A model generated the notes under the pieces. It had not been told where the DNA came from and ran no database searches. It was given only the letters and a program-made list of their open reading frames with translations. A program made the translations under genes and the position numbers. 24,000 nt of DNA, taken from the NCBI RefSeq assembly GCF_965226985.1, contig NZ_OZ245712.1, positions 915,261 through 939,260 of the forward strand, written 5' to 3'. This document shows positions 1 through 16,026 of this stretch, piece after piece; position 1 is the stretch's first letter; each line of letters begins with the position of its first letter. Source of the DNA: Algihabitans sp. (GTDB lineage: Bacteria; Pseudomonadota; Alphaproteobacteria; Kiloniellales; DSM-21159).

Positions 1-987
1 AGAGAGGTGGAGTCTGCGGCCGGTCCGATCTTGCGCGACAGCCTACCCGACTTCGACCGTCTCGCGCGTAGCTTTGCGAGCGCTGGGATCGACACGCGCT
101 ATTCCGTAGCTCCGCTCGATTGGTTCGCTCGTCCGGGAGGGTGGCATGAACGGATGACGCTGTTCCGGCAGGGCGCGGGCACACTCTTTCTCGAGGCCGC
201 CGCTGCGGCCCTGGCCGAGGCCTCCCTCCGGCCCGAGGATGTCGATTGTGTCGTGACCGTTTCCACCACCGGTATCGTCACCCCCAGCCTGGACGCTCAG
301 GTTCTGGAGGCACTGGGATTGCGGCGAGACGTGACGCGAGTCCCGGTCTTCGGGCTCGGTTGCGCTGGCGGCGTCAGCGGTCTGTCGATCGCACGGCGGA
401 TGGCTGCCTCCCATCCCGGCTCCAACGTGCTGCTCGTGGCCGTCGAGGCCTGCACGCTTTCCTTCCGCCGCGACAATCCGCGCAAGGCCGACATGATCGC
501 GACCATGCTGTTCGGCGACGGCGCGGCGGCCGTGTGCCTGTCCACCGCGGCGAGCGGCGCCGTTCTCGGCGCAGGTGTCGAGTTCACCTGGCCCGCTACG
601 CTGGAGATCATGGGCTGGGACATTCAAGACGATGGCCTTGGCGTGGTTTTCGACCGGTCCATCCCCGCGTTCCTGGAGCAGCACCTTGCCGAAGCGGTCG
701 AGACGAGCTTGCTGCGTCTCGCGTTGTATCGGTCGCAGATTACGCGCTTCGTCTGTCATCCCGGCGGTGCCAAGGTGATTCGCTCGCTCGAGTTGGCGCT
801 GACGCTGCCGCGGGGCGCGCTGGATCACGAACGCTCGGTTCTGCGCCGCTACGGCAACATGTCTTCGCCAACAGTCCTCTTCGTGTTGCGTGAGGTTCTG
901 CGCGAGGCACCTCGCGGCTGTCTGCTCCTGACCGCTTTGGGGCCGGGCTTCACGGCCGCCTTGCTCCCGGTTCATGCCGATGGCTGA
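1..987 (+). CDS. Type III polyketide synthase (chalcone/stilbene synthase superfamily), 5' end cut by window edge
   Basis: The frame is open from nt 1; track ORF 7..987 begins at an internal GTG. The translation carries the type III PKS Cys-His-Asn triad in its usual contexts: FGLGCAGG (nucleophile Cys), RFVCHPGG (His) and RRYGNMSSPTVLFVL (Asn), plus the C-terminal LGPGFTA loop. The active-site Cys lies only about 119 aa into the visible ORF, so some N-terminal residues are probably outside the window. Confidence 0.9.
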   Translation, partial: REVESAAGPILRDSLPDFDRLARSFASAGIDTRYSVAPLDWFARPGGWHERMTLFRQGAGTLFLEAAAAALAEASLRPEDVDCVVTVSTTGIVTPSLDAQVLEALGLRRDVTRVPVFGLGCAGGVSGLSIARRMAASHPGSNVLLVAVEACTLSFRRDNPRKADMIATMLFGDGAAAVCLSTAASGAVLGAGVEFTWPATLEIMGWDIQDDGLGVVFDRSIPAFLEQHLAEAVETSLLRLALYRSQITRFVCHPGGAKVIRSLELALTLPRGALDHERSVLRRYGNMSSPTVLFVLREVLREAPRGCLLLTALGPGFTAALLPVHADG

Positions 988-1468
988 GGGTGCTCTTCTG
1001 CTCGCCGTAATCACGCTGCAGCGTATCCTGGAGCTAGGTCTGTCGGCGCGTAACACGCGCCGGCTGCTGCAACGCGGCGCCGTCGAGATCGCTCCGGGTC
1101 ACTACCCTTTGATCGTCGCCCTCCATACAGCGTGGCTCGGTGTCTTGTGGGTTGTGGGATGGAACCTGGAGGTCTCTGGTGTCTGGCTGACTGCCTATCT
1201 TGCGCTGCAGCTTTTCCGTCTCTGGATCCTGGCCAGCCTCGGGCAACGTTGGACTACCCGCATCATCGTTTTCGACGAGCCTCTGGTACGGCGCGGTCCC
1301 TATCGCTTCCTGCGGCACCCCAACTACCTTCTCGTGGTCCTGGAAATCGCGGTCGTGCCTCTCGCACTCGGCTTGCCCTGGCTGGCCGTGATCTTCTCGC
1401 TGCTGAATGCCGGGGTCCTCCTCGTTCGCATCCGCGCCGAAGACCGGGCGCTTGCCGCTTTTCGATAG
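974..1468 (+). CDS. Isoprenylcysteine carboxyl methyltransferase (ICMT/PEMT-like) family membrane methyltransferase
   Basis: 164-aa hydrophobic multi-helix protein with the ICMT-type motif RGPYRFLRHPNYLLVVLE. ATG 974 (alternative ATG 980) overlaps the PKS stop codon (985-987), indicating translational coupling. GC3-rich codon usage. Confidence 0.8.
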   Translation: MPMAEGALLLAVITLQRILELGLSARNTRRLLQRGAVEIAPGHYPLIVALHTAWLGVLWVVGWNLEVSGVWLTAYLALQLFRLWILASLGQRWTTRIIVFDEPLVRRGPYRFLRHPNYLLVVLEIAVVPLALGLPWLAVIFSLLNAGVLLVRIRAEDRALAAFR

Positions 1469-8823: not shown

Positions 8824-10827
8824 TCAGACGCCGATCTTGCCGCCGTCGTCTTTGGTGATGGTCACCACGGAGGGACGCGGGGGCATGCCCTCCTGGAAGT
8901 CCGGCCAGCGCGTGGCGGGATCCTCGAAGGTCGAGTTCCGTTCGAAGCCCGGGTAGGCCTTGGTACCGTCGGTGGCCGGATGCTGAACCGCGACAAACAG
9001 CGTGGTGTCGTCGGGCGTAAACTTCGGCCCGCACATCTCGGCACCCACGGGCACGCGGAAGAACATCTTGCCGGTGCCGCGCAGGTCGCCCTCTGTTTCC
9101 ATCGCCCAGACGCCGTCGGCGGTGCCGCTGAGCGACCAGCCGCTGCCCTGGTCCGTGGTGATCCAGAGACGTCCCTGGTTGTCGACCGCGCAGTTGTCCG
9201 GAGAGGCGAACCAGCCGTTCTCCGTCGTCGCCGGGTTCCACATGGCGCCGACCTCGCCGTCCGCGGGATCGCCGCAGACGACAAGCATGTCCCAGGTGTC
9301 CTCGGTGGAGGCGTGGTCGCCGTTGGCGGCCGTGATCTCGACGATCTGACCGAAGCGGTTCTCGGCGCGGGGGTTGGCTGCATCCACCTGCTCGGCGGTC
9401 CGACGGCTGTTGTTGGTCAGCATGACGTAGATCTTGTCGGTCGCCGGGTTGGCCTCGACGTCCTCGGGCCGGTCCATCGGCGTGGCGCCCAGGGCGTCGG
9501 CGGCCAGGCGGGCGTTGATGACCACGGTGGCCTGATCGGGGAAGCCGTTCTCGGCCGTCAGCGGTCCTTCGCCCTGGACCAGTGGCAGCCAGGCGACGGT
9601 GCCGCCCGCATCGAAGCGCGCCACGTAGAGCGTGCCCTCGTCCAGCAGGTCCATGTTGGCAGCACGGTCGTCAGGGTTGTAGGTCCCGGCGCTAACGAAC
9701 TTGTAGAGATAGTCGAAGCGCTGATCGTCGCCCATGTAGACCACGATGCGGCCGTCCCCGTTGACGATCGACTCGCCGCCCTCATGCTTGAAGCGGCCGA
9801 GCGCGGTGCGCTTCTTCGGCGTCGAGGTCGGGTCGAGGGGGTCGACCTCGACGATCCAGCCGAAACGGTTGCTTTCGTTCGGCTCCTTGGTGATGTCGAA
9901 GCGGTCGTGGAACTTGCCCCAGGCATACCAGGCGCCGGGTACGCCGTAGCGCTCCAGGGCGGCCTGCTGCGGATGACCCTCGACGTCGCCCCAGAAGTAG
10001 CCGTGGAAGTTCTCTTCCGCCATCAGGTAGGTGCCCCAGGGGGTGATGCCGCCGGCGCAGTTGTTGATCGTGCCGACGACCCGGGTGCCGCCTGAGTCGA
10101 CGGAGGTCTTCATCAGGTCGTGACCCGCGGCCGGCCCGGTCAGGTCCATCTCGGTCTCGAGCGCGGTGATGCGGCGGGCGTAGTCGCTGCCCGAAACCAC
10201 GTTCCAGGCGCCGTCCACCTTCTCGATCTCCAGGATGGAGCCGCCGTGCGCGGCCATCTCCACCTCGACCAGGTCCTTGGTCATGCCGGCGAACTCGGCG
10301 TCGCCGTCCTGCTTGCCCAGGCCCGGGAACATCACCTCCTCGTTGGTGTATTCGTGATTGACGCAGAGCAGACCGCGCTCGGCGTTGTCCGAGCCGAAGG
10401 GCAGGCCGATGTAGCCGACGTAGTCGTTGTTGTAGCCGAACTGCTGCGCCTGAGCGGCAGCCGTCTGACTCATCGGATCGAACTCTGGCGCATCGGCCAG
10501 AACCGGATCGCCCCAGCGGATCAGAACCTCGGCGCTGTAGCCGGGCGCGACGTGGTGCGTCTCGTCGACACCATGGGAGATTTCGCTGAAGTTGAAGGAG
10601 GCGGAGGCAGCTAGTGCCTTCTTGCCGCCCAGGGCAGCCAAACCGCTGCCGGCGACCGCGCCGATGGCGGCGACGCCCAAGGCGCCCTTCAGGACGTCGC
10701 GGCGGCCGAAGCGGCGGTTGATGACGTCGCCGATGGTCGGCCTGTCCGAGCGGTTGGAGGGGGTGTCTTCGGAAGCTTCGTAGGCCTCCGCGCGGCAGGA
10801 ATAGCGCGACAGATCGCTGTTCTTCAT
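8824..10827 (-). CDS. phoX: PhoX-family alkaline phosphatase, Tat-exported
   Basis: The 667-aa protein has a twin-arginine signal (NRRFGRRDVLKGALGVAAIGAVAG). PhoX/DUF839-type segments are present: NNCAGGITPWGTYL, NRFGWIVEVDP, RPEDVE, FASPDN. A GC-rich hairpin terminator follows the stop. Confidence 0.9.
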   Translation of the reverse strand: MKNSDLSRYSCRAEAYEASEDTPSNRSDRPTIGDVINRRFGRRDVLKGALGVAAIGAVAGSGLAALGGKKALAASASFNFSEISHGVDETHHVAPGYSAEVLIRWGDPVLADAPEFDPMSQTAAAQAQQFGYNNDYVGYIGLPFGSDNAERGLLCVNHEYTNEEVMFPGLGKQDGDAEFAGMTKDLVEVEMAAHGGSILEIEKVDGAWNVVSGSDYARRITALETEMDLTGPAAGHDLMKTSVDSGGTRVVGTINNCAGGITPWGTYLMAEENFHGYFWGDVEGHPQQAALERYGVPGAWYAWGKFHDRFDITKEPNESNRFGWIVEVDPLDPTSTPKKRTALGRFKHEGGESIVNGDGRIVVYMGDDQRFDYLYKFVSAGTYNPDDRAANMDLLDEGTLYVARFDAGGTVAWLPLVQGEGPLTAENGFPDQATVVINARLAADALGATPMDRPEDVEANPATDKIYVMLTNNSRRTAEQVDAANPRAENRFGQIVEITAANGDHASTEDTWDMLVVCGDPADGEVGAMWNPATTENGWFASPDNCAVDNQGRLWITTDQGSGWSLSGTADGVWAMETEGDLRGTGKMFFRVPVGAEMCGPKFTPDDTTLFVAVQHPATDGTKAYPGFERNSTFEDPATRWPDFQEGMPPRPSVVTITKDDGGKIGV

Positions 10828-11107: not shown

Positions 11108-11389
11108 CTACCAGAGGTACTTCGGAGCCCCGCATTCCGGGCACTCCCAATCGTCGGGCAGATCCGCGAAGGCGACCCCTGGCGGGATGTCGTGCTCCGG
11201 CACACCGATCTTGGGATCGAAGAGGTAGCCGCACTCTGTCTCCGGGCAGCGATAACGCTTCAGCTTGGCTGCGATGGCGACGCTGGGGCCGCGGATGGCC
11301 AGAATCGGTAGGGCGGCTGTGACGATCACCAGGCTGCGCAGCAGGGCACGGCGCGTCGGGCCGCCGCCGTCGGTCTCACGGTCTGTCAT
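11108..11389 (-). CDS. Rubredoxin-domain protein with an N-terminal twin-arginine-type signal peptide
   Basis: The N-terminus is [40 protein letters not shown]|AK. It is followed by a ~53-aa rubredoxin fold pattern: [14 protein letters not shown]...[22 protein letters not shown]. The gene starts 21 nt after the stop of the upstream molybdoenzyme. Confidence 0.8.
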
Positions 11390-11410
11390 CGTTGGGCTCT
11401 CTCGGGCGTG

Positions 11411-13837
11411 TCAGGCGACTTCGGGGGGATCGTAGGCGGTGATGTCCGGCAGCGGCCCGTCGGTTTTCTCGATCTGGACAAGCGCGCTCTGCGCGGCACA
11501 GGCTTGGCTCAAGCGTGAACTGCCGATGTCCCAGGTCACGAGATTCGGGTTCCCGTGCTTGTCGAGGGACCCCGGGACGCCCGGCTCCAACGGATCGATC
11601 CAGGCGCCCTCGTGGATCATCGCGACACCCGGCCGGACGCGGTCGCTGACGATGACGCCGACCTGGCAGGCCCCTCGCGCATTGAAAAGCCGCGCCACGT
11701 CGCCTGTCTCAAGACCACGTTCCGACGCGTCGTCGGGGTGCAGCCACAACGGCTCGCGCCCCTGGATCTTGCTGGCGCGCGCCAGCGGGCCGTTGTCCAT
11801 CTGACTGTGCAGACGGTGCTGCGGATGACTGGAGATCAAGTGCAGTGGCGTGTCCTCGTTGGCCCTGCCTAGCCATTCCTCAGGCTCCAGCCAAGTGGCC
11901 TGACCGGGGCAGTCGTCGTATCCCATCGCCGCGATCTTCTCCGAGAAGAGCTCGATGCGGCCACTGGGGGTCCGCAGGGCGTTGGCCTCTGGATCGGCTC
12001 GAAAGTCCGCCAGATAGACATACTGGTCTTCCGGGCGCGGCATGACGACTAGGCCGTCTTCCCAGAAGGTTTCGAAGTCGGGCAGCACCAGTCCCTCGGC
12101 AACCGCCCGTTCGCGCGCCCGGCCGTAGAGGTGCCGCAGCCAGCCCATCTCGTCCCGGTTCTCCGTAAAGTCGGCGCGGTAGCCCAGCCGCTCCGCAAGA
12201 TCGGCGTAGATGTCGAAGTCGTTGCGCGCCTCGCCGACCGGCGCCACGAGCTGCGGCATGGCGAAGATGTAGCGATCGCGCGGGCTGGCGCCGATGTCGT
12301 TGCGCTCCATCGTTGTCGTCGCCGGCAGCACCAGGTCGGCGCGCCGCGCGGTCGGGGTCCACCAGGGCTCTTGCACGATGACCGTCTCCGGCTTGGCCCA
12401 GGCGCGGGTCAGCCGGTTCAGGTCCTGATGGTGGTGGAAGGGGTTGCCGCCGGCCCAGTGGATCATGCGTATGTCGGGGTAGGACATCCGCCGACCGTTG
12501 AATTCGAACGGCTGACCGGGCTGCAGCAGCATGTCGGCGATGCGCGCCACCGGGATGCGCAGCTTGACCGGATTGCGACCGCGCGAAAAGCCTGGAACGC
12601 TGACGTTATTGGGCGGAAAGGCATAGCCGTTGATCGAGGTGTAGCTGAAGCCGAAGCCTCCGCCAGGCAGGCCGATCTGCCCGAGCAGGGCCGCCAGCAG
12701 GACCGTGCCCCACCAGGGCTGTTCGCCGTAGCGCGCCCGCTGCAGGGACCAGGCGGTCATAATCATGGTCCGCCGCGCCGCCATCTTGCGAGCAAGATCG
12801 CGGATCCAGTCGGCCGGCACCTCGGTCAGCTCGGCCGCCCAGTCTGCGTCCTTCGGCTGACCGTCGCTCTCGCCCAGCAGGTAGGGCCGCGCGCGCTCGA
12901 AGCCGACGGTGTAGCGCTCTACGAAGGCGAGATCGGCCAGGTGCTCGGTCAGCAGCGTGTGACAGAGCGCCAGCATCAGCGCGATGTCGCTGTTCGGCCG
13001 GATCGGGCGCCATTCCATGCCGAGCACGCCGACTTCGTCTTCGCGCACCGGGTTGATGGCGATCATCTCGATCCCGGCGGCCTGGCACTGGCGCAGCCAT
13101 TTTTCCGTCGTGTGCTCGCCGCTGCCGCCCCAGGTAACCTGTGCGTTCTTGAAGGTCGCGCCGCCGAACATGACGATCAGCTTCGTATGCCGGACCAGCG
13201 ACGGCCAGGTGGTGAAGGGGCCGCCGATCGCCTGATTGCTGCCGAGCAGATGGGGCAGCAGCACCATGCCCGCGCCGAAGGAGTAGTTGGTCAGATCGTC
13301 GACGTAGCCGCCGTGCAGCGCATAGAGCCGGTTCGTCATCTCGTCGCAGGCGTGGAAGCGGCCGCCCGAGGCCCAGCCGTAGCTGGCCGCGTAGAAGGAC
13401 TCGTTACCGTAAGCGGCCTTTACGCGCTGCATCTCCTCGGCGGCGATGTCGAGCGCCTGATCCCAGTCCAGCTCGACGAAGGCTTCCTTGCCGCGATCCG
13501 CGCCGTCGGACTTCTCGCGCTTCTCTAGCCAGGACTTGCGGGCCATCGGCTTGGCGATCCGGGACTTGTCGTAGAGGATCGCTGGGAAGTTCTGGATCAT
13601 TGCCGTGGGGAAGGGGTCTCGCTCGAAGGGCGCGACCGAGACCAGCCGCCCGTCGACGACGCGCGCGCGAAACGCGCCCCAGTGGCTGGAGGTCAGAAGT
13701 TCCCTATCGTTCGGCAGAGCGAAGCTCGGCTTGAGGCTGCTGGCTGCACAGGCGGCTGCCGCACCGCCGGCTAGCAGAAACCGGCGGCGGTCCAGAGAGG
13801 GTCCGCGAGCGATTCCGAAGAGATCTCGCACCGCCAT
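11411..13837 (-). CDS. Molybdopterin (bis-MGD) S-/N-oxide reductase, DorA/TorA/BisC subgroup, Tat-exported
   Basis: The start is moved to ATG 13837 because GGAGGAGG lies 7 nt upstream. The N-terminus MAVRDLFGIARGPSLDRRRFLLAGGAAAACAASSLKPSFA is a Tat signal. There is no N-terminal Fe-S Cys cluster. The mature part begins SSHWGAFRARV. The NYSFGAG segment corresponds to the Ser Mo-ligand region of DorA/TorA (from memory). The C-terminal HGNPNLVTWDIGSS...ALVQIEK is typical of this subgroup. Confidence 0.88.
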   Translation of the reverse strand: MAVRDLFGIARGPSLDRRRFLLAGGAAAACAASSLKPSFALPNDRELLTSSHWGAFRARVVDGRLVSVAPFERDPFPTAMIQNFPAILYDKSRIAKPMARKSWLEKREKSDGADRGKEAFVELDWDQALDIAAEEMQRVKAAYGNESFYAASYGWASGGRFHACDEMTNRLYALHGGYVDDLTNYSFGAGMVLLPHLLGSNQAIGGPFTTWPSLVRHTKLIVMFGGATFKNAQVTWGGSGEHTTEKWLRQCQAAGIEMIAINPVREDEVGVLGMEWRPIRPNSDIALMLALCHTLLTEHLADLAFVERYTVGFERARPYLLGESDGQPKDADWAAELTEVPADWIRDLARKMAARRTMIMTAWSLQRARYGEQPWWGTVLLAALLGQIGLPGGGFGFSYTSINGYAFPPNNVSVPGFSRGRNPVKLRIPVARIADMLLQPGQPFEFNGRRMSYPDIRMIHWAGGNPFHHHQDLNRLTRAWAKPETVIVQEPWWTPTARRADLVLPATTTMERNDIGASPRDRYIFAMPQLVAPVGEARNDFDIYADLAERLGYRADFTENRDEMGWLRHLYGRARERAVAEGLVLPDFETFWEDGLVVMPRPEDQYVYLADFRADPEANALRTPSGRIELFSEKIAAMGYDDCPGQATWLEPEEWLGRANEDTPLHLISSHPQHRLHSQMDNGPLARASKIQGREPLWLHPDDASERGLETGDVARLFNARGACQVGVIVSDRVRPGVAMIHEGAWIDPLEPGVPGSLDKHGNPNLVTWDIGSSRLSQACAAQSALVQIEKTDGPLPDITAYDPPEVA

Positions 13838-13894
13838 GACCGAACCTCCTCCCTGATGTCCAAAGCTTGGTCGTGGGCGGTAATCTGCAAGTTG

Positions 13895-13912
13895 CAATGC
13901 GCAAAAGCATTG
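13895..13912. promoter_or_regulatory. Inverted repeat CAATGC-N6-GCATTG upstream of the molybdoenzyme gene
   Basis: 6-bp perfect arms, 58-75 bp upstream of ATG 13837, at the edge of an AT-rich intergenic block (13898-14026). Confidence 0.3.
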
Positions 13913-14026
13913 AGATGAGTCAAGTTTAACTGTGTACGAACTCCATGTTACTTATCTAGTTCATCAAATATAAATAAAACTGTCATATTTCATTTGGTTC
14001 GGGGAAAGTCGGACGTATGCGCTGCG

Positions 14027-15199
14027 TCAATCCGAAAGGTGTTCCGCAAGAGCTGCCAAGTCGCTGTCGCGGCCTGGTTCCGCGATGAGAGACAGTCCGA
14101 CCGGGCCGCCCGTGACCCTGCCGGCCGGCATTGTGACCTGCGGCGCTCCAGACAGGCCGGCGATGCAGGTCAGTTGCGCGATTCGCGGCCAGTCGCGGTA
14201 GGCTTCGGTCGCGGAGGCGCTGCGTTTCGGGGCCGGATCGGGAACGGTCGGCAAACAGAGCAGGCTCTCTTCGTCCAGGCATTCCAGCACGGCGCTGCGC
14301 ATCGCGGGCCAGCCATGGACGGCGGCTTCGTGGACCTGCGGATCCAGTCCGGCACCGGCCGCGAAGTTTGCGGCGACGTTGTAGGCGAAGCGCGGGTTCG
14401 TCTCCAGGATCCAGCTTTGCAAGGTCGCCCAGGCCTCGCGTTGCTGCAGCGCGATCTGACGGTCGCGCCAGACCGTGAGGCCCTCGTCGGCAAGCGTTCT
14501 CCGCTCGACCTCCGTCGCGGCCTGCATCAGCTTGTCGAGATGCGGTTGGAGCGCCTGCCGCGTTTCCTCGCTCACGACGGCCCAGGCGTCCTCCGGCAGC
14601 AACAGCTTGAAGGACTTGGCCTCGCCGCTTCCGAACACGGTCTCTGTCGTTCTGCGCAGAGTTTTCGCATCCCGGGTCATCCAGCCCAGCGTGTCGAAGC
14701 TGGGGGCCTGCGGCAGCACACCCTCGAACTGCAGACGGCCGTGGCTGCAGCGCAGTCCGTAGAGGCCGCAGTAGGCTGCCGGTACGCGCACCGAGCCGCC
14801 GGTGTCGGTGCCGAGCCCGATGTCGGCCAGGCCGCCGGCGACGGCAGCTGCCGAGCCGCTTGAGGAGCCACCGGGAAGGCGGTCCGGAGCGGCTGGATTG
14901 ATCGGCGTGCCGTAGTGGGCGTTCAACCCGAAGATTCCGCGCGACAGCTCGTCCGTATGGGTCTTACCGATCAGATCCGCACCGGCCGCGAGCAGGGTTT
15001 CGATCAGGCTCGCGCTTCGCTCGGCGGGCGGATGACTGGCTGCCCAATCGGGATTGCCGCCACCGGTCACGTCGCCGGCCGTGTCGTAGAGATCCTTGGC
15101 GACGAAGGTCAGGCCCGTCAGCGGGCCGCCCGCCTGCCCCTTGATGGCACGTCGCGGTCCCGCGACGAAGGCGCCGAAGTCTTCGGACGCTTGGGTCAT
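14027..15199 (-). CDS. Amidase-signature (AS) family amidase
   Basis: The AS motif is intact: FVAKDLYD (Lys), GGSSSGSAAAVA (cis-Ser) and GTDTGGSVRVPAAYCGLYGLR (nucleophile Ser). The start ATG forms an ATGA overlap with the stop of the upstream dioxygenase (15196-15199). Confidence 0.9.
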   Translation of the reverse strand: MTQASEDFGAFVAGPRRAIKGQAGGPLTGLTFVAKDLYDTAGDVTGGGNPDWAASHPPAERSASLIETLLAAGADLIGKTHTDELSRGIFGLNAHYGTPINPAAPDRLPGGSSSGSAAAVAGGLADIGLGTDTGGSVRVPAAYCGLYGLRCSHGRLQFEGVLPQAPSFDTLGWMTRDAKTLRRTTETVFGSGEAKSFKLLLPEDAWAVVSEETRQALQPHLDKLMQAATEVERRTLADEGLTVWRDRQIALQQREAWATLQSWILETNPRFAYNVAANFAAGAGLDPQVHEAAVHGWPAMRSAVLECLDEESLLCLPTVPDPAPKRSASATEAYRDWPRIAQLTCIAGLSGAPQVTMPAGRVTGGPVGLSLIAEPGRDSDLAALAEHLSD

Positions 15200-16026
15200 G
15201 CCTCGACCTCGGCAGCCCCGGACGTAAGCCCCGGAAACAGGGGCGCTAAGGTCTTGTCGTAGGTCTGGAGGTAGTCCCGGAAGGAGGTGCCGCCTGTGCC
15301 GACCTCGACGCCGACGATCTCGAGCTGCCGCGTCGCTAGCTGCAGATGCGCGCGATGAAACTGCAGTTGATGGCGGTCGTAGGCGGCGAATTCGGCCAGC
15401 AAGGCCGCCGTGGCCTCGTCCCGGCGCAGCTCCGCCAGGGCGGCGGAGACCTCCTCGGCGGGTGCATTCTCCAGCAGCCGCCGATAGTAGTGGGCGAGCC
15501 CGTGATGCCGGTAGCGCTCCAGCCAGTTACTCACCTGTGCGCCGTAGCGCCTCTCGAACTCGCTCTCGGCGATATGAACCGCCCCGGACGCGTCTGCGGT
15601 GCCGCCCTGCCAGTAGCGCGGAACGCCGCTCATGATTTCCAGTTGGCGAAACTGGAACGACTGGAAGCCGCTGGTCGGGCCGATCGAGGTACGAAACTCG
15701 GCAAAGGCACGCAGGCCGCCCAGGATCGGCATGGTGGCGTTGACCGTTCGCCACAGCTTGTTGACCCTCTTCAGGAAGTAGACCGCTTCGTCGCGCTCCG
15801 GGACGGCGAGGGCGTCCAGGGTGCGCTCCAAGTCCAGGATCATCTGATGAAAGGCCAGCTCGCAGATCTGGTGGATCGCGATGAAGAGATCTTCGTCCTG
15901 GGAAGCCGTGATCGGTTGTTTGCAGGCCAGCAGACTCTCGAGACTGTGATAGCTCCAGTAGTGATTGTCCTCCGCGCGCAGATCCGGATCGCGTGGCGGG
16001 AGCGGTTTGGCATCATAAGGCTTCAT
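15196..16026 (-). CDS. Tryptophan 2,3-dioxygenase-like haem dioxygenase
   Basis: TDO family motifs are present: DEDLFIAIHQICELAF, FRTSIGPTSGFQSFQFRQLE, a proximal-His region (QFHRAHLQ) and GTGGTSFRDYL. An AAAGG(T)G SD-like sequence lies about 7 nt upstream of ATG 16026. Confidence 0.8.
   Translation of the reverse strand: MKPYDAKPLPPRDPDLRAEDNHYWSYHSLESLLACKQPITASQDEDLFIAIHQICELAFHQMILDLERTLDALAVPERDEAVYFLKRVNKLWRTVNATMPILGGLRAFAEFRTSIGPTSGFQSFQFRQLEIMSGVPRYWQGGTADASGAVHIAESEFERRYGAQVSNWLERYRHHGLAHYYRRLLENAPAEEVSAALAELRRDEATAALLAEFAAYDRHQLQFHRAHLQLATRQLEIVGVEVGTGGTSFRDYLQTYDKTLAPLFPGLTSGAAEVEA

Follow-up and report, generated by a model that had tools for sequence, protein, structure and literature searches.

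Textbooks place rubredoxins in the cytoplasm and describe periplasmic molybdoenzymes of the dimethyl sulfoxide (DMSO)/trimethylamine N-oxide (TMAO) reductase type as clients of membrane-bound multihaem cytochromes. The stretch of DNA analysed here, a window of 24,000 nucleotides from an Algihabitans sp. genome (NCBI RefSeq assembly GCF_965226985.1, contig NZ_OZ245712.1, positions 915,261 to 939,260 of the forward strand), raises a question that touches on both statements: what does a small rubredoxin with an apparent twin-arginine signal do when its gene lies directly behind that of a reductase with a twin-arginine signal of its own? A first-pass annotation of the sequence had read the arrangement as a possible new periplasmic electron-transfer pair, and both genes are present as it described them, on the minus strand. 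Comparison across genomes shows that the reductase and the rubredoxin constitute a conserved two-gene module. The interpretation that we favour, with a probability of roughly 0.6, is that the two genes form one operon for a periplasmic two-component S-/N-oxide reductase in which the rubredoxin would be the electron donor. All the support for it is comparative, coming from sequence, gene neighbourhood and one predicted structure, that of the rubredoxin.

A reductase gene and its constant neighbour

The reductase gene (11411 to 13837, minus strand) encodes an 808-residue bis(molybdopterin guanine dinucleotide) (bis-MGD) S-/N-oxide reductase that its Pfam and NCBIfam matches place in type III of the DMSO-reductase family, with a serine ligand to the metal; the Pfam domains are Molybdopterin_N, Molybdopterin and Molydop_binding. 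As read from the sequence, residues 1 to 40 (13718 to 13837, minus strand) are a twin-arginine translocation (Tat) signal: the protein begins MAVRDLFGIARGPSLDRRRFLLAGGAAAACAASSLKPSFA, followed by LP, contains the Tat motif D-R-R-R-F-L-L, and would probably be cleaved at the S-F-A motif, so that LDRRRFLLAGGAAAACAASSLKPSFA closes the signal and LP opens the mature enzyme. The score for TIGR00509, 996.4 bits, falls just short of the cut-off of 1017.55, and the TorA equivalogs NF011682 and TIGR02164 are missed with 793 vs 909 bits and 772 vs 1465 bits. The best solved relative is Rhodobacter DorA (1eu1, E 4e-219), and the identities are 45% to DorA, 46% to TorA and 41% to E. coli BisC. In a neighbour-joining tree, the signal-bearing reductases form one clade that is sister to a group of signal-less enzymes, and both lie apart from E. 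coli BisC and TorZ, Rhodobacter DorA and E. coli TorA. Thus, the label of a DorA/TorA-type enzyme, which the first-pass annotation had used, stands at the level of the family; taken more specifically it does not, as the enzyme belongs to a separate clade whose nearest relatives are signal-less, with only 41-46% identity to the named proteins. The signal-less sister enzymes (P0029 to P0129, about 770 residues) are the closest relatives in sequence at 54-57% identity, share the domain order and the catalytic residues, as BisC does, and are in many cases annotated as 'biotin/methionine sulfoxide reductase' by the Joint Genome Institute (JGI). Neither they nor BisC have a signal peptide, whereas the window enzyme carries its 40-residue twin-arginine (RR) signal.

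The equivalents of DorA Ser147 (the molybdenum ligand), Tyr114, Trp116, Tyr146, Trp322 and His649 are invariant in all 18 clade members that were compared, and TorA lacks Tyr114, as expected. Other positions have changed in the clade, with DorA Tyr165 replaced by Gly, Ala or Ser, Gln167 by Pro and Tyr360 by Ser. From these residues, the reductase looks competent for S-oxides, with an altered substrate funnel. Since Tyr114 is retained, its substrate could be an S-oxide, for example DMSO, methionine sulfoxide or biotin sulfoxide.

Behind the reductase stop codon, a spacer of 21 nt (11390 to 11410, minus strand), as the first-pass annotation had counted, holds a weak GAGAGAG ribosome-binding site and leads into the rubredoxin gene. 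A word-index search from the rubredoxin side gave only nine relatives, and a degenerate DNA pattern for the motif CPExEC found five of 185,579 species genomes plus one metagenome contig; these pattern counts are lower bounds because four partner rubredoxins later found from the reductase side had been missed by it. By tblastn, the reductase gene was immediately upstream in every pattern locus that included upstream DNA. Overall, in all nine lineages with full upstream DNA the rubredoxin gene is immediately preceded by a complete reductase gene. Three further loci include no more of the reductase gene than its 3' end, and the metagenome locus (L011) stops 64 nt before the rubredoxin gene, too soon to show its neighbour. 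Starting from the enzyme, the best reductase matches (P0010 to P0028) are 58-87% identical and 799-835 residues long where full length, and every full-length member has an RR signal; in the four cases missed by the pattern that were looked up (L012, L014, L015 and L016), the rubredoxin gene again follows directly.

The pair is thus found in the window and in L001, L002, L009, L010, L003/4, L005/7, L008, L012/13, L014, L015 and L016/17. The window is syntenic gene for gene with two loci of Algihabitans albus (Rhodospirillales; L001 and L002), where the reductase is 87-92% and the rubredoxin 73-82% identical, and the flanks of the others are otherwise unrelated. The set comprises 13 distinct partner rubredoxins from as many lineages in at least nine unrelated gene neighbourhoods, so that the adjacency, kept in every lineage examined, is far beyond chance. 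In the orthologues the two genes overlap by up to 11 nt or lie up to 50 nt apart, as would fit co-transcription or co-translated partners. A further rubredoxin (P0135) and a reductase (P0024) both come from a 20,319-bp JGI contig, probably the same one, and would then be one more pair.

The signal-less sister enzymes provide the complementary case. No rubredoxin neighbour was present in either of the two sister loci examined (L018 and L019), a small sample with a clear direction: enzyme and rubredoxin would have their signals jointly or lack them jointly. This suggests that the presence of the rubredoxin is tied to export into the periplasm, a compartment without NAD(P)H.

A separate observation concerns the reading frame of the two genes. 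In the window (11108 to 13837, minus strand), the rubredoxin frame is that of the reductase, the two starts being 2448 nt apart and the rubredoxin beginning seven sense codons past the TGA. We considered programmed read-through from reductase to rubredoxin and rejected it because the pairs of L001 and L002 are out of frame; the shared frame is probably a coincidence. No intrinsic terminator was found after the rubredoxin gene, where the fold of the downstream RNA is no better than that of shuffled sequences (z = -1.4).

The small protein and where it would reside

The rubredoxin gene (11108 to 11389, minus strand) encodes a 93-residue precursor that matches Pfam Rubredoxin PF00301 (E 5e-16), the model covering residues 45-90 with 58.9 bits against a cut-off of 23. 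All 13 partner rubredoxins match the same model. The predicted mature domain, residues 41-93 (11111 to 11269, minus strand), is supported by alignments, Foldseek and the invariant columns of the family. In HMMER alignments to solved rubredoxins, C48, C53, C83 and C86 fall on the four iron ligands, and these four cysteines are invariant across the family alignment. The first-pass annotation had recognized a complete rubredoxin domain with one irregular knuckle, and had asked for just such a profile alignment; the domain match and the superposition of the model bear it out. The first knuckle, CPETEC, has C-x4-C spacing through a two-residue insertion within it in place of the canonical C-x2-C-G, and the second, CPEC, is formed by C83 and C86. 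The C-x4-C spacing is found in 13 of 13 partners (as CPETEC, CPEHEC, CPEQEC, CPENEC, CPEEEC or CSETGC) and in most other signal-bearing rubredoxins too. The AlphaFold model of the protein has block-mean pLDDT (predicted local distance difference test) values of 75-86 over residues 41-93, and by Foldseek against the Protein Data Bank it superposes on solved rubredoxins with a root-mean-square deviation of 1.2-1.4 Å and a target-normalised TM (template modelling) score of 0.80-0.84. By predicted fold and by the alignment of its four cysteines, the small protein is a rubredoxin, with iron binding predicted.

It is nevertheless an unusual one. The Desulfovibrio proteins Rdl and Rd-2, 'type 2' rubredoxins, are cytoplasmic and have a C-x4-C first knuckle, a point of background that the literature searched did not confirm. 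Rdl has been listed as a rubredoxin-like electron donor (PMC545781). The window protein shares with these and with classical rubredoxins the fold and the four-cysteine site, and differs from all of them, which are cytoplasmic and without signal peptide, in having an RR signal, in ending early at a C-terminal Trp (..PKYLW) that is invariant in the 13 partners, and in scoring only 60.2 bits with the NCBIfam rubredoxin equivalog NF045768, under the cut-off of 90. Of the families that the NCBIfam scan listed for the partners, none is represented by a subfamily-specific model. In the rubredoxins of L003, L011 and L015, a fifth cysteine stands in a C-D-L-P motif 6-7 residues before the first knuckle, just past the predicted cleavage site; the window rubredoxin is without it.

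Residues 1-40 (11270 to 11389, minus strand) have the composition of a signal peptide, with T-R-R-A-L-L at residues 12-17, an uncharged hydrophobic core of 13-14 residues, R33, and a c-region reading RGPSVAIA ahead of AK, in which A-I-A occupies positions 38-40 and cleavage would probably occur after A40. AlphaFold models this region with low confidence (block-mean pLDDT 43-51). All 13 partners have the RR, and it is nearly invariant in 21 more diverse signal-bearing rubredoxins. The partner cores are hydrophobic and uncharged over 13-24 residues, except for the L010 core with only 10. A small-x-small motif directly follows the core in 12 of 13 partners by a home-made rule, which is sensitive and not specific, as two of 17 unrelated window proteins passed it also; the thirteenth, L010, reads V-W-A. 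No orthologue starts past the hydrophobic segment, which would have spoken against the first-pass reading: all 13 keep the RR and then the core. The P0007 gene call (L005), which lacked the RR, proved to be a mis-called start, as the RR returns (GRRDVLRR) once the frame is read from an upstream ATG that overlaps the reductase stop. Basic residues in the c-region are known to help Tat signals avoid the Sec pathway. Considering the RR, the short uncharged cores, the small-x-small motifs, the basic c-regions and a cofactor normally inserted in the cytoplasm, we infer that the rubredoxin domain is periplasmic and exported by Tat.

Several findings weigh against this placement, and with it against the donor reading. 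The short Tat models are insensitive, and among hidden Markov models (HMMs) of this kind TIGR01409 matches three of 13 partners (best E 0.006) and gives the window rubredoxin no score, while Pfam TAT_signal PF10518 matches none of the 13 rubredoxins and gives a weak match on one partner reductase. Five basic residues lie past the core (R33, K42, K44, R45 and R47), which by positive-inside logic could mean a cytoplasmic C-terminus. The window core is also unusually hydrophobic, with a mean Kyte-Doolittle value of 2.54 against 1.2-2.3 in the orthologues, and Sec export or retention as a membrane anchor may be compatible with it.

Two alternatives can be built on these findings. If the hydrophobic segment were an N-terminal anchor with the rubredoxin domain in the cytoplasm, the protein would never meet the reductase after its export; the basic residues and the silence of the Tat HMMs speak for such an anchor. 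The charges can be read the other way, since basic c-regions are expected of Tat signals and the N-flank is at least as basic as the C-flank in most orthologues. Moreover, the RR is on the N-side in 13 of 13 partners and 20 further clusters, and the rubredoxin accompanies the exported form of the enzyme alone, as judged from two signal-less loci. We regard a cytoplasmic domain as extremely improbable, and the sequence features as favouring the periplasm. Alternatively, the pair could function as proposed with the rubredoxin signal left uncleaved, which would keep the protein tethered on the periplasmic side of the inner membrane, where it would act as a bound relay, perhaps near a quinol-oxidising complex. 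The very hydrophobic window core would suit a tether, and a position near the membrane would help to explain how the rubredoxin is reduced. Against it, a core of 13-14 residues that contains a Pro is short for a membrane helix, the orthologue cores are mostly rich in Gly, Ala and Thr and only moderately hydrophobic, and the small-x-small motif (V-W-A in L010) comes right after the core. This variant seems to us unlikely, and we return to the soluble, Tat-exported rubredoxin as the form to be placed beside the reductase.

Electron supply, direction and control

Periplasmic enzymes of this kind would be expected to have a cytochrome and a chaperone encoded nearby, and the first-pass annotation had found neither a TorC/DorC cytochrome nor a TorD/DmsD-type chaperone in the window. 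Their absence is confirmed: among the 20 main open reading frames (ORFs) of the window, none belongs to a cytochrome c or the TorD family. The same holds for the orthologues, as neither an ORF with at least two CxxCH motifs nor a TorD family gene is encoded in any of 11 loci (the window and 10 orthologous loci), so that no torC/dorC-like gene stands beside the orthologous reductases. The E. coli torCAD and torYZ operons, by comparison, encode a multihaem quinol dehydrogenase, with torD specifying a chaperone, and here a rubredoxin gene is found instead of either.

The missing chaperone gene could also be taken to mean that the small protein is a structural or maturation subunit, for example a zinc ribbon, that stabilises or escorts the reductase as a substitute for a TorD-type chaperone. 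Rubredoxin folds can bind zinc, and a rubredoxin-like iron protein, FdhE, is required for periplasmic formate dehydrogenases (PMC10609526). This proposal has to contend with the end-to-end match to true rubredoxins, which includes the aromatic core and the DLPDDWxCPxCG motif, and with a conserved export signal that is unexpected on a cytoplasmic chaperone. In addition, the signal-less sister enzymes need cofactor insertion too, yet the two examined are without a rubredoxin. We judge the maturation role distinctly unlikely.

For the rubredoxin as electron donor, the following sequence of events can be hypothesized. The cofactors, Mo-bis-MGD in the reductase and one iron in the Cys4 site of the rubredoxin, would be loaded in the cytoplasm, and each protein would be exported in folded form through Tat by its own twin-arginine signal. 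The signals would probably be cut at the small-x-small motifs S-F-A and A-I-A, releasing a soluble rubredoxin of 53 residues. The rubredoxin could then dock on the periplasmic reductase in the role of the DorC/TorC haem domain and supply the molybdenum centre with two electrons in single steps, and the centre would reduce a sulfoxide or N-oxide, with the operon being switched on at low oxygen through an upstream box. The DMSO and TMAO couples lie near +130 to +160 mV. Against the rubredoxin couple, listed at 57 mV in a text from which the sign is missing and which we take as -57 mV (PMC10746228), transfer from rubredoxin to substrate would be downhill.

The box just mentioned lies 73-86 nt upstream of the reductase ATG (13910 to 13923). 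It is palindromic and of the FNR/FixK type, reading TTGAGATGAGTCAA on the plus strand and TTGACTCATCTCAA in gene orientation, and is the only exact TTGA-N6-TCAA within the 24-kb window; we take this motif to be the consensus of the FNR/FixK/CRP family. Between it and the gene, a Shine-Dalgarno sequence, GGGAGGAGG, can be read 8-16 nt upstream of the ATG (13845 to 13853, minus strand). Exact boxes are found at -86 to -105 in L001, L002, L010 and the unrelated L003, and boxes with one mismatch at -86, -88 and -89 in L014, L015 and L016 and at -145 in L007. No such box is present in L012, whose reductase gene lies close behind phoX, so that nine of 10 operons have one upstream, at a conserved distance. 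Such a position would suit a class II activator site some 40 nt ahead of a transcription start, and a regulator probably binds there. The conserved box suggests induction at low oxygen, which favours a reductive role in respiration or scavenging. A second conserved block, ATATGACAGTTT...TTTGATGAA(n)TA, at about 13955 to 13988 and about 45-65 nt upstream of the FNR-type box, is common to the window, L001 and L002 and recurs in weaker form (CATGAAATA, GTGACA) in L003, L010, L007, L015 and L016; a second regulator may act there.

The direction of catalysis can be questioned too. The enzyme might be oxidative, for example from dimethyl sulfide (DMS) to DMSO, with the rubredoxin as a periplasmic acceptor that passes electrons on to cytochrome c. 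The hosts are marine Alphaproteobacteria, Rhodobacter DMSO reductase has DMS:acceptor activity in vitro, and the problem of a low-potential donor would be removed. To our knowledge, though, all characterised members of type III are reductases, the box points to low-oxygen expression as for respiratory reductases, and a typical rubredoxin potential is well below that of the DMSO/DMS couple, which would make the protein a poor acceptor. An oxidative pair is very unlikely on these grounds, and the reductive one remains our interpretation.

Further points fall on the unfavourable side of the balance for a rubredoxin donor. None of the 11 loci encodes a suitable reductant for the rubredoxin, and electron transfer to it from ubiquinol would run uphill. 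The pairwise identities of rubredoxin core and reductase are correlated over 10 pairs (r = 0.57, Mantel p = 0.006), but r is about 0 once close relatives are collapsed; this lack of a co-evolution signal can be attributed to the 47-residue core being too conserved. Finally, one signal-bearing rubredoxin, P0159 of Siculibacillus lacustris (5001 to 5246 in L024/L025), stands alone between unrelated genes with no molybdoenzyme neighbour. On the other side are the conserved adjacency, the RR and core at the start of every orthologue, the sequence features that favour the periplasm and the absence of a torC/dorC-like gene beside the orthologues. On these four counts the periplasmic redox-partner reading of the first-pass annotation is supported, the electron transfer itself being what we infer.

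Relation to known systems and to other exported rubredoxins

Among the closest known systems are DorCA(D) of Rhodobacter and TorCAD/TorYZ of E. coli. As in the window, the enzyme is exported by Tat, consists of one bis-MGD subunit with a Ser ligand, and is without an Fe-S cluster; the identity to DorA and TorA reaches 45-46%, and Tyr114, Trp116 and Ser147 of DorA are conserved here. The dor genes are known to be under low-oxygen control through a regulator of the FNR type, which is likely here too. The differences, besides the electron supply, are the separate clade and the substrate funnel, with Y165G, Q167P and Y360S. MsrPQ resembles the pair in that a Tat-exported molybdoenzyme reduces periplasmic sulfoxides with a dedicated electron supplier other than cytochrome c; however, MsrP is of the sulfite-oxidase family, not a bis-MGD enzyme, and MsrQ is a haem-b protein embedded in the membrane. 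The small exported one-electron carriers (HiPIP, cupredoxins and cytochromes c) and the superoxide reductases (SORs) with predicted Tat signals (TAT-SOR) are likewise small metalloproteins associated with cytoplasmic loading, Tat export and service to a periplasmic redox enzyme, and they differ in fold and metal centre, none being a rubredoxin. We know of none of these four described as the partner of a DMSO-reductase-family enzyme. Seven SORs with twin-arginine signals have been predicted in SORGOdb (PMC3116461), and these predicted Tat-secreted superoxide reductases are the nearest idea in the literature searched. That literature yielded no description of a periplasmic or Tat-exported rubredoxin, and nothing relevant on rubredoxin together with a twin-arginine signal, with biotin sulfoxide reductase or with the DMSO reductase family. 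The window thus encodes a periplasmic type III molybdoenzyme with a partner unprecedented in that literature, and the remark in the first-pass annotation that no described system matches this architecture agrees with what we found.

Similar rubredoxins exist beyond the pair. A HMMER scan of 1.84 billion representative sequences gave 3,457 rubredoxin matches, and among the best 150 of these about 20 clusters (at 50% identity) have an RR signal, mostly with the C-x4-C knuckle; they include proteins of cultured Pseudovibrio and Nesiotobacter (P0141) and of Siculibacillus. When 21 diverse signal-bearing rubredoxins served as the profile, multi-domain rubredoxins flooded the results and no usable single-domain matches were obtained. 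Another signal-bearing rubredoxin, P0162, lies on a contig of just 614 bp, which carries no information on its neighbours. The solitary Siculibacillus gene suggests that exported rubredoxins may have more than this one enzyme as a client. It can therefore be envisioned, with chances that we consider about even, that the Tat-exported C-x4-C rubredoxins are an unrecognised class of periplasmic one-electron carriers, so far mainly in Alphaproteobacteria, of which one subfamily became the dedicated donor of a periplasmic bis-MGD reductase evolved from a cytoplasmic BisC-like enzyme, replacing the multihaem cytochrome c that all known Dor/Tor systems have, with others standing alone and perhaps serving other periplasmic enzymes.

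If an exported rubredoxin does stand in for the cytochrome in this conserved operon, a new kind of electron carrier would be added to the periplasm, and a cytoplasmic, probably NAD(P)H-linked sulfoxide reductase would have been moved there by the gain of two signal peptides and a small iron protein, which raises the question of what reduces a rubredoxin outside the cytoplasm. The pair may point to a haem-sparing way for marine bacteria at low oxygen to scavenge or respire sulfoxides and N-oxides, such as DMSO, TMAO and methionine or biotin sulfoxide. Since Algihabitans albus is cultured and has a complete genome, the system is open to direct study.

Some genes recur in the neighbourhood of the pair. 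A Tat-signal alkaline phosphatase, PhoX, adjoins it downstream in the window (8824 to 10827, minus strand), in Algihabitans and, as judged from the ORF sequence, in L009, and upstream in the distant L012 (3909 to 5909), where the reductase is 64% identical; this may be a coincidence or a functional link between exported metalloenzymes. An amidase-signature enzyme likewise recurs near the reductases. In the window (14027 to 16026, minus strand), its gene overlaps a tryptophan 2,3-dioxygenase gene by 4 nt in what looks like a kynurenine-type operon, which immediately precedes the FNR-type box; in L005 (4601 to 5923) it is two genes downstream; and in L019 two amidases (1208 to 2551 and 9022 to 10359) flank the cytoplasmic sister enzyme. 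In L005 (2870 to 3463) and L007, which are from the same organism, a BioY biotin-transporter gene directly follows the rubredoxin gene and could be a single hint at biotin sulfoxide as the substrate. As pointers to the substrate, BioY and the amidases are weak and inconsistent.

Other neighbours were seen once each. The rubredoxin gene is followed in L003 (3175 to 3492) by an ORF for a Cys-rich protein of 105 residues with a signal peptide and no Pfam match, and in L014 (4352 to 8235) by a xanthine-dehydrogenase-type operon (FAD_binding_5, Fer2, MoCoBD) and ThiS. At the far end of the window (7 to 1468, plus strand), a chalcone-synthase-like type III polyketide synthase gene overlaps an ICMT-family methyltransferase gene, an arrangement that resembles the alkylresorcinol operons of the srs/ars type.

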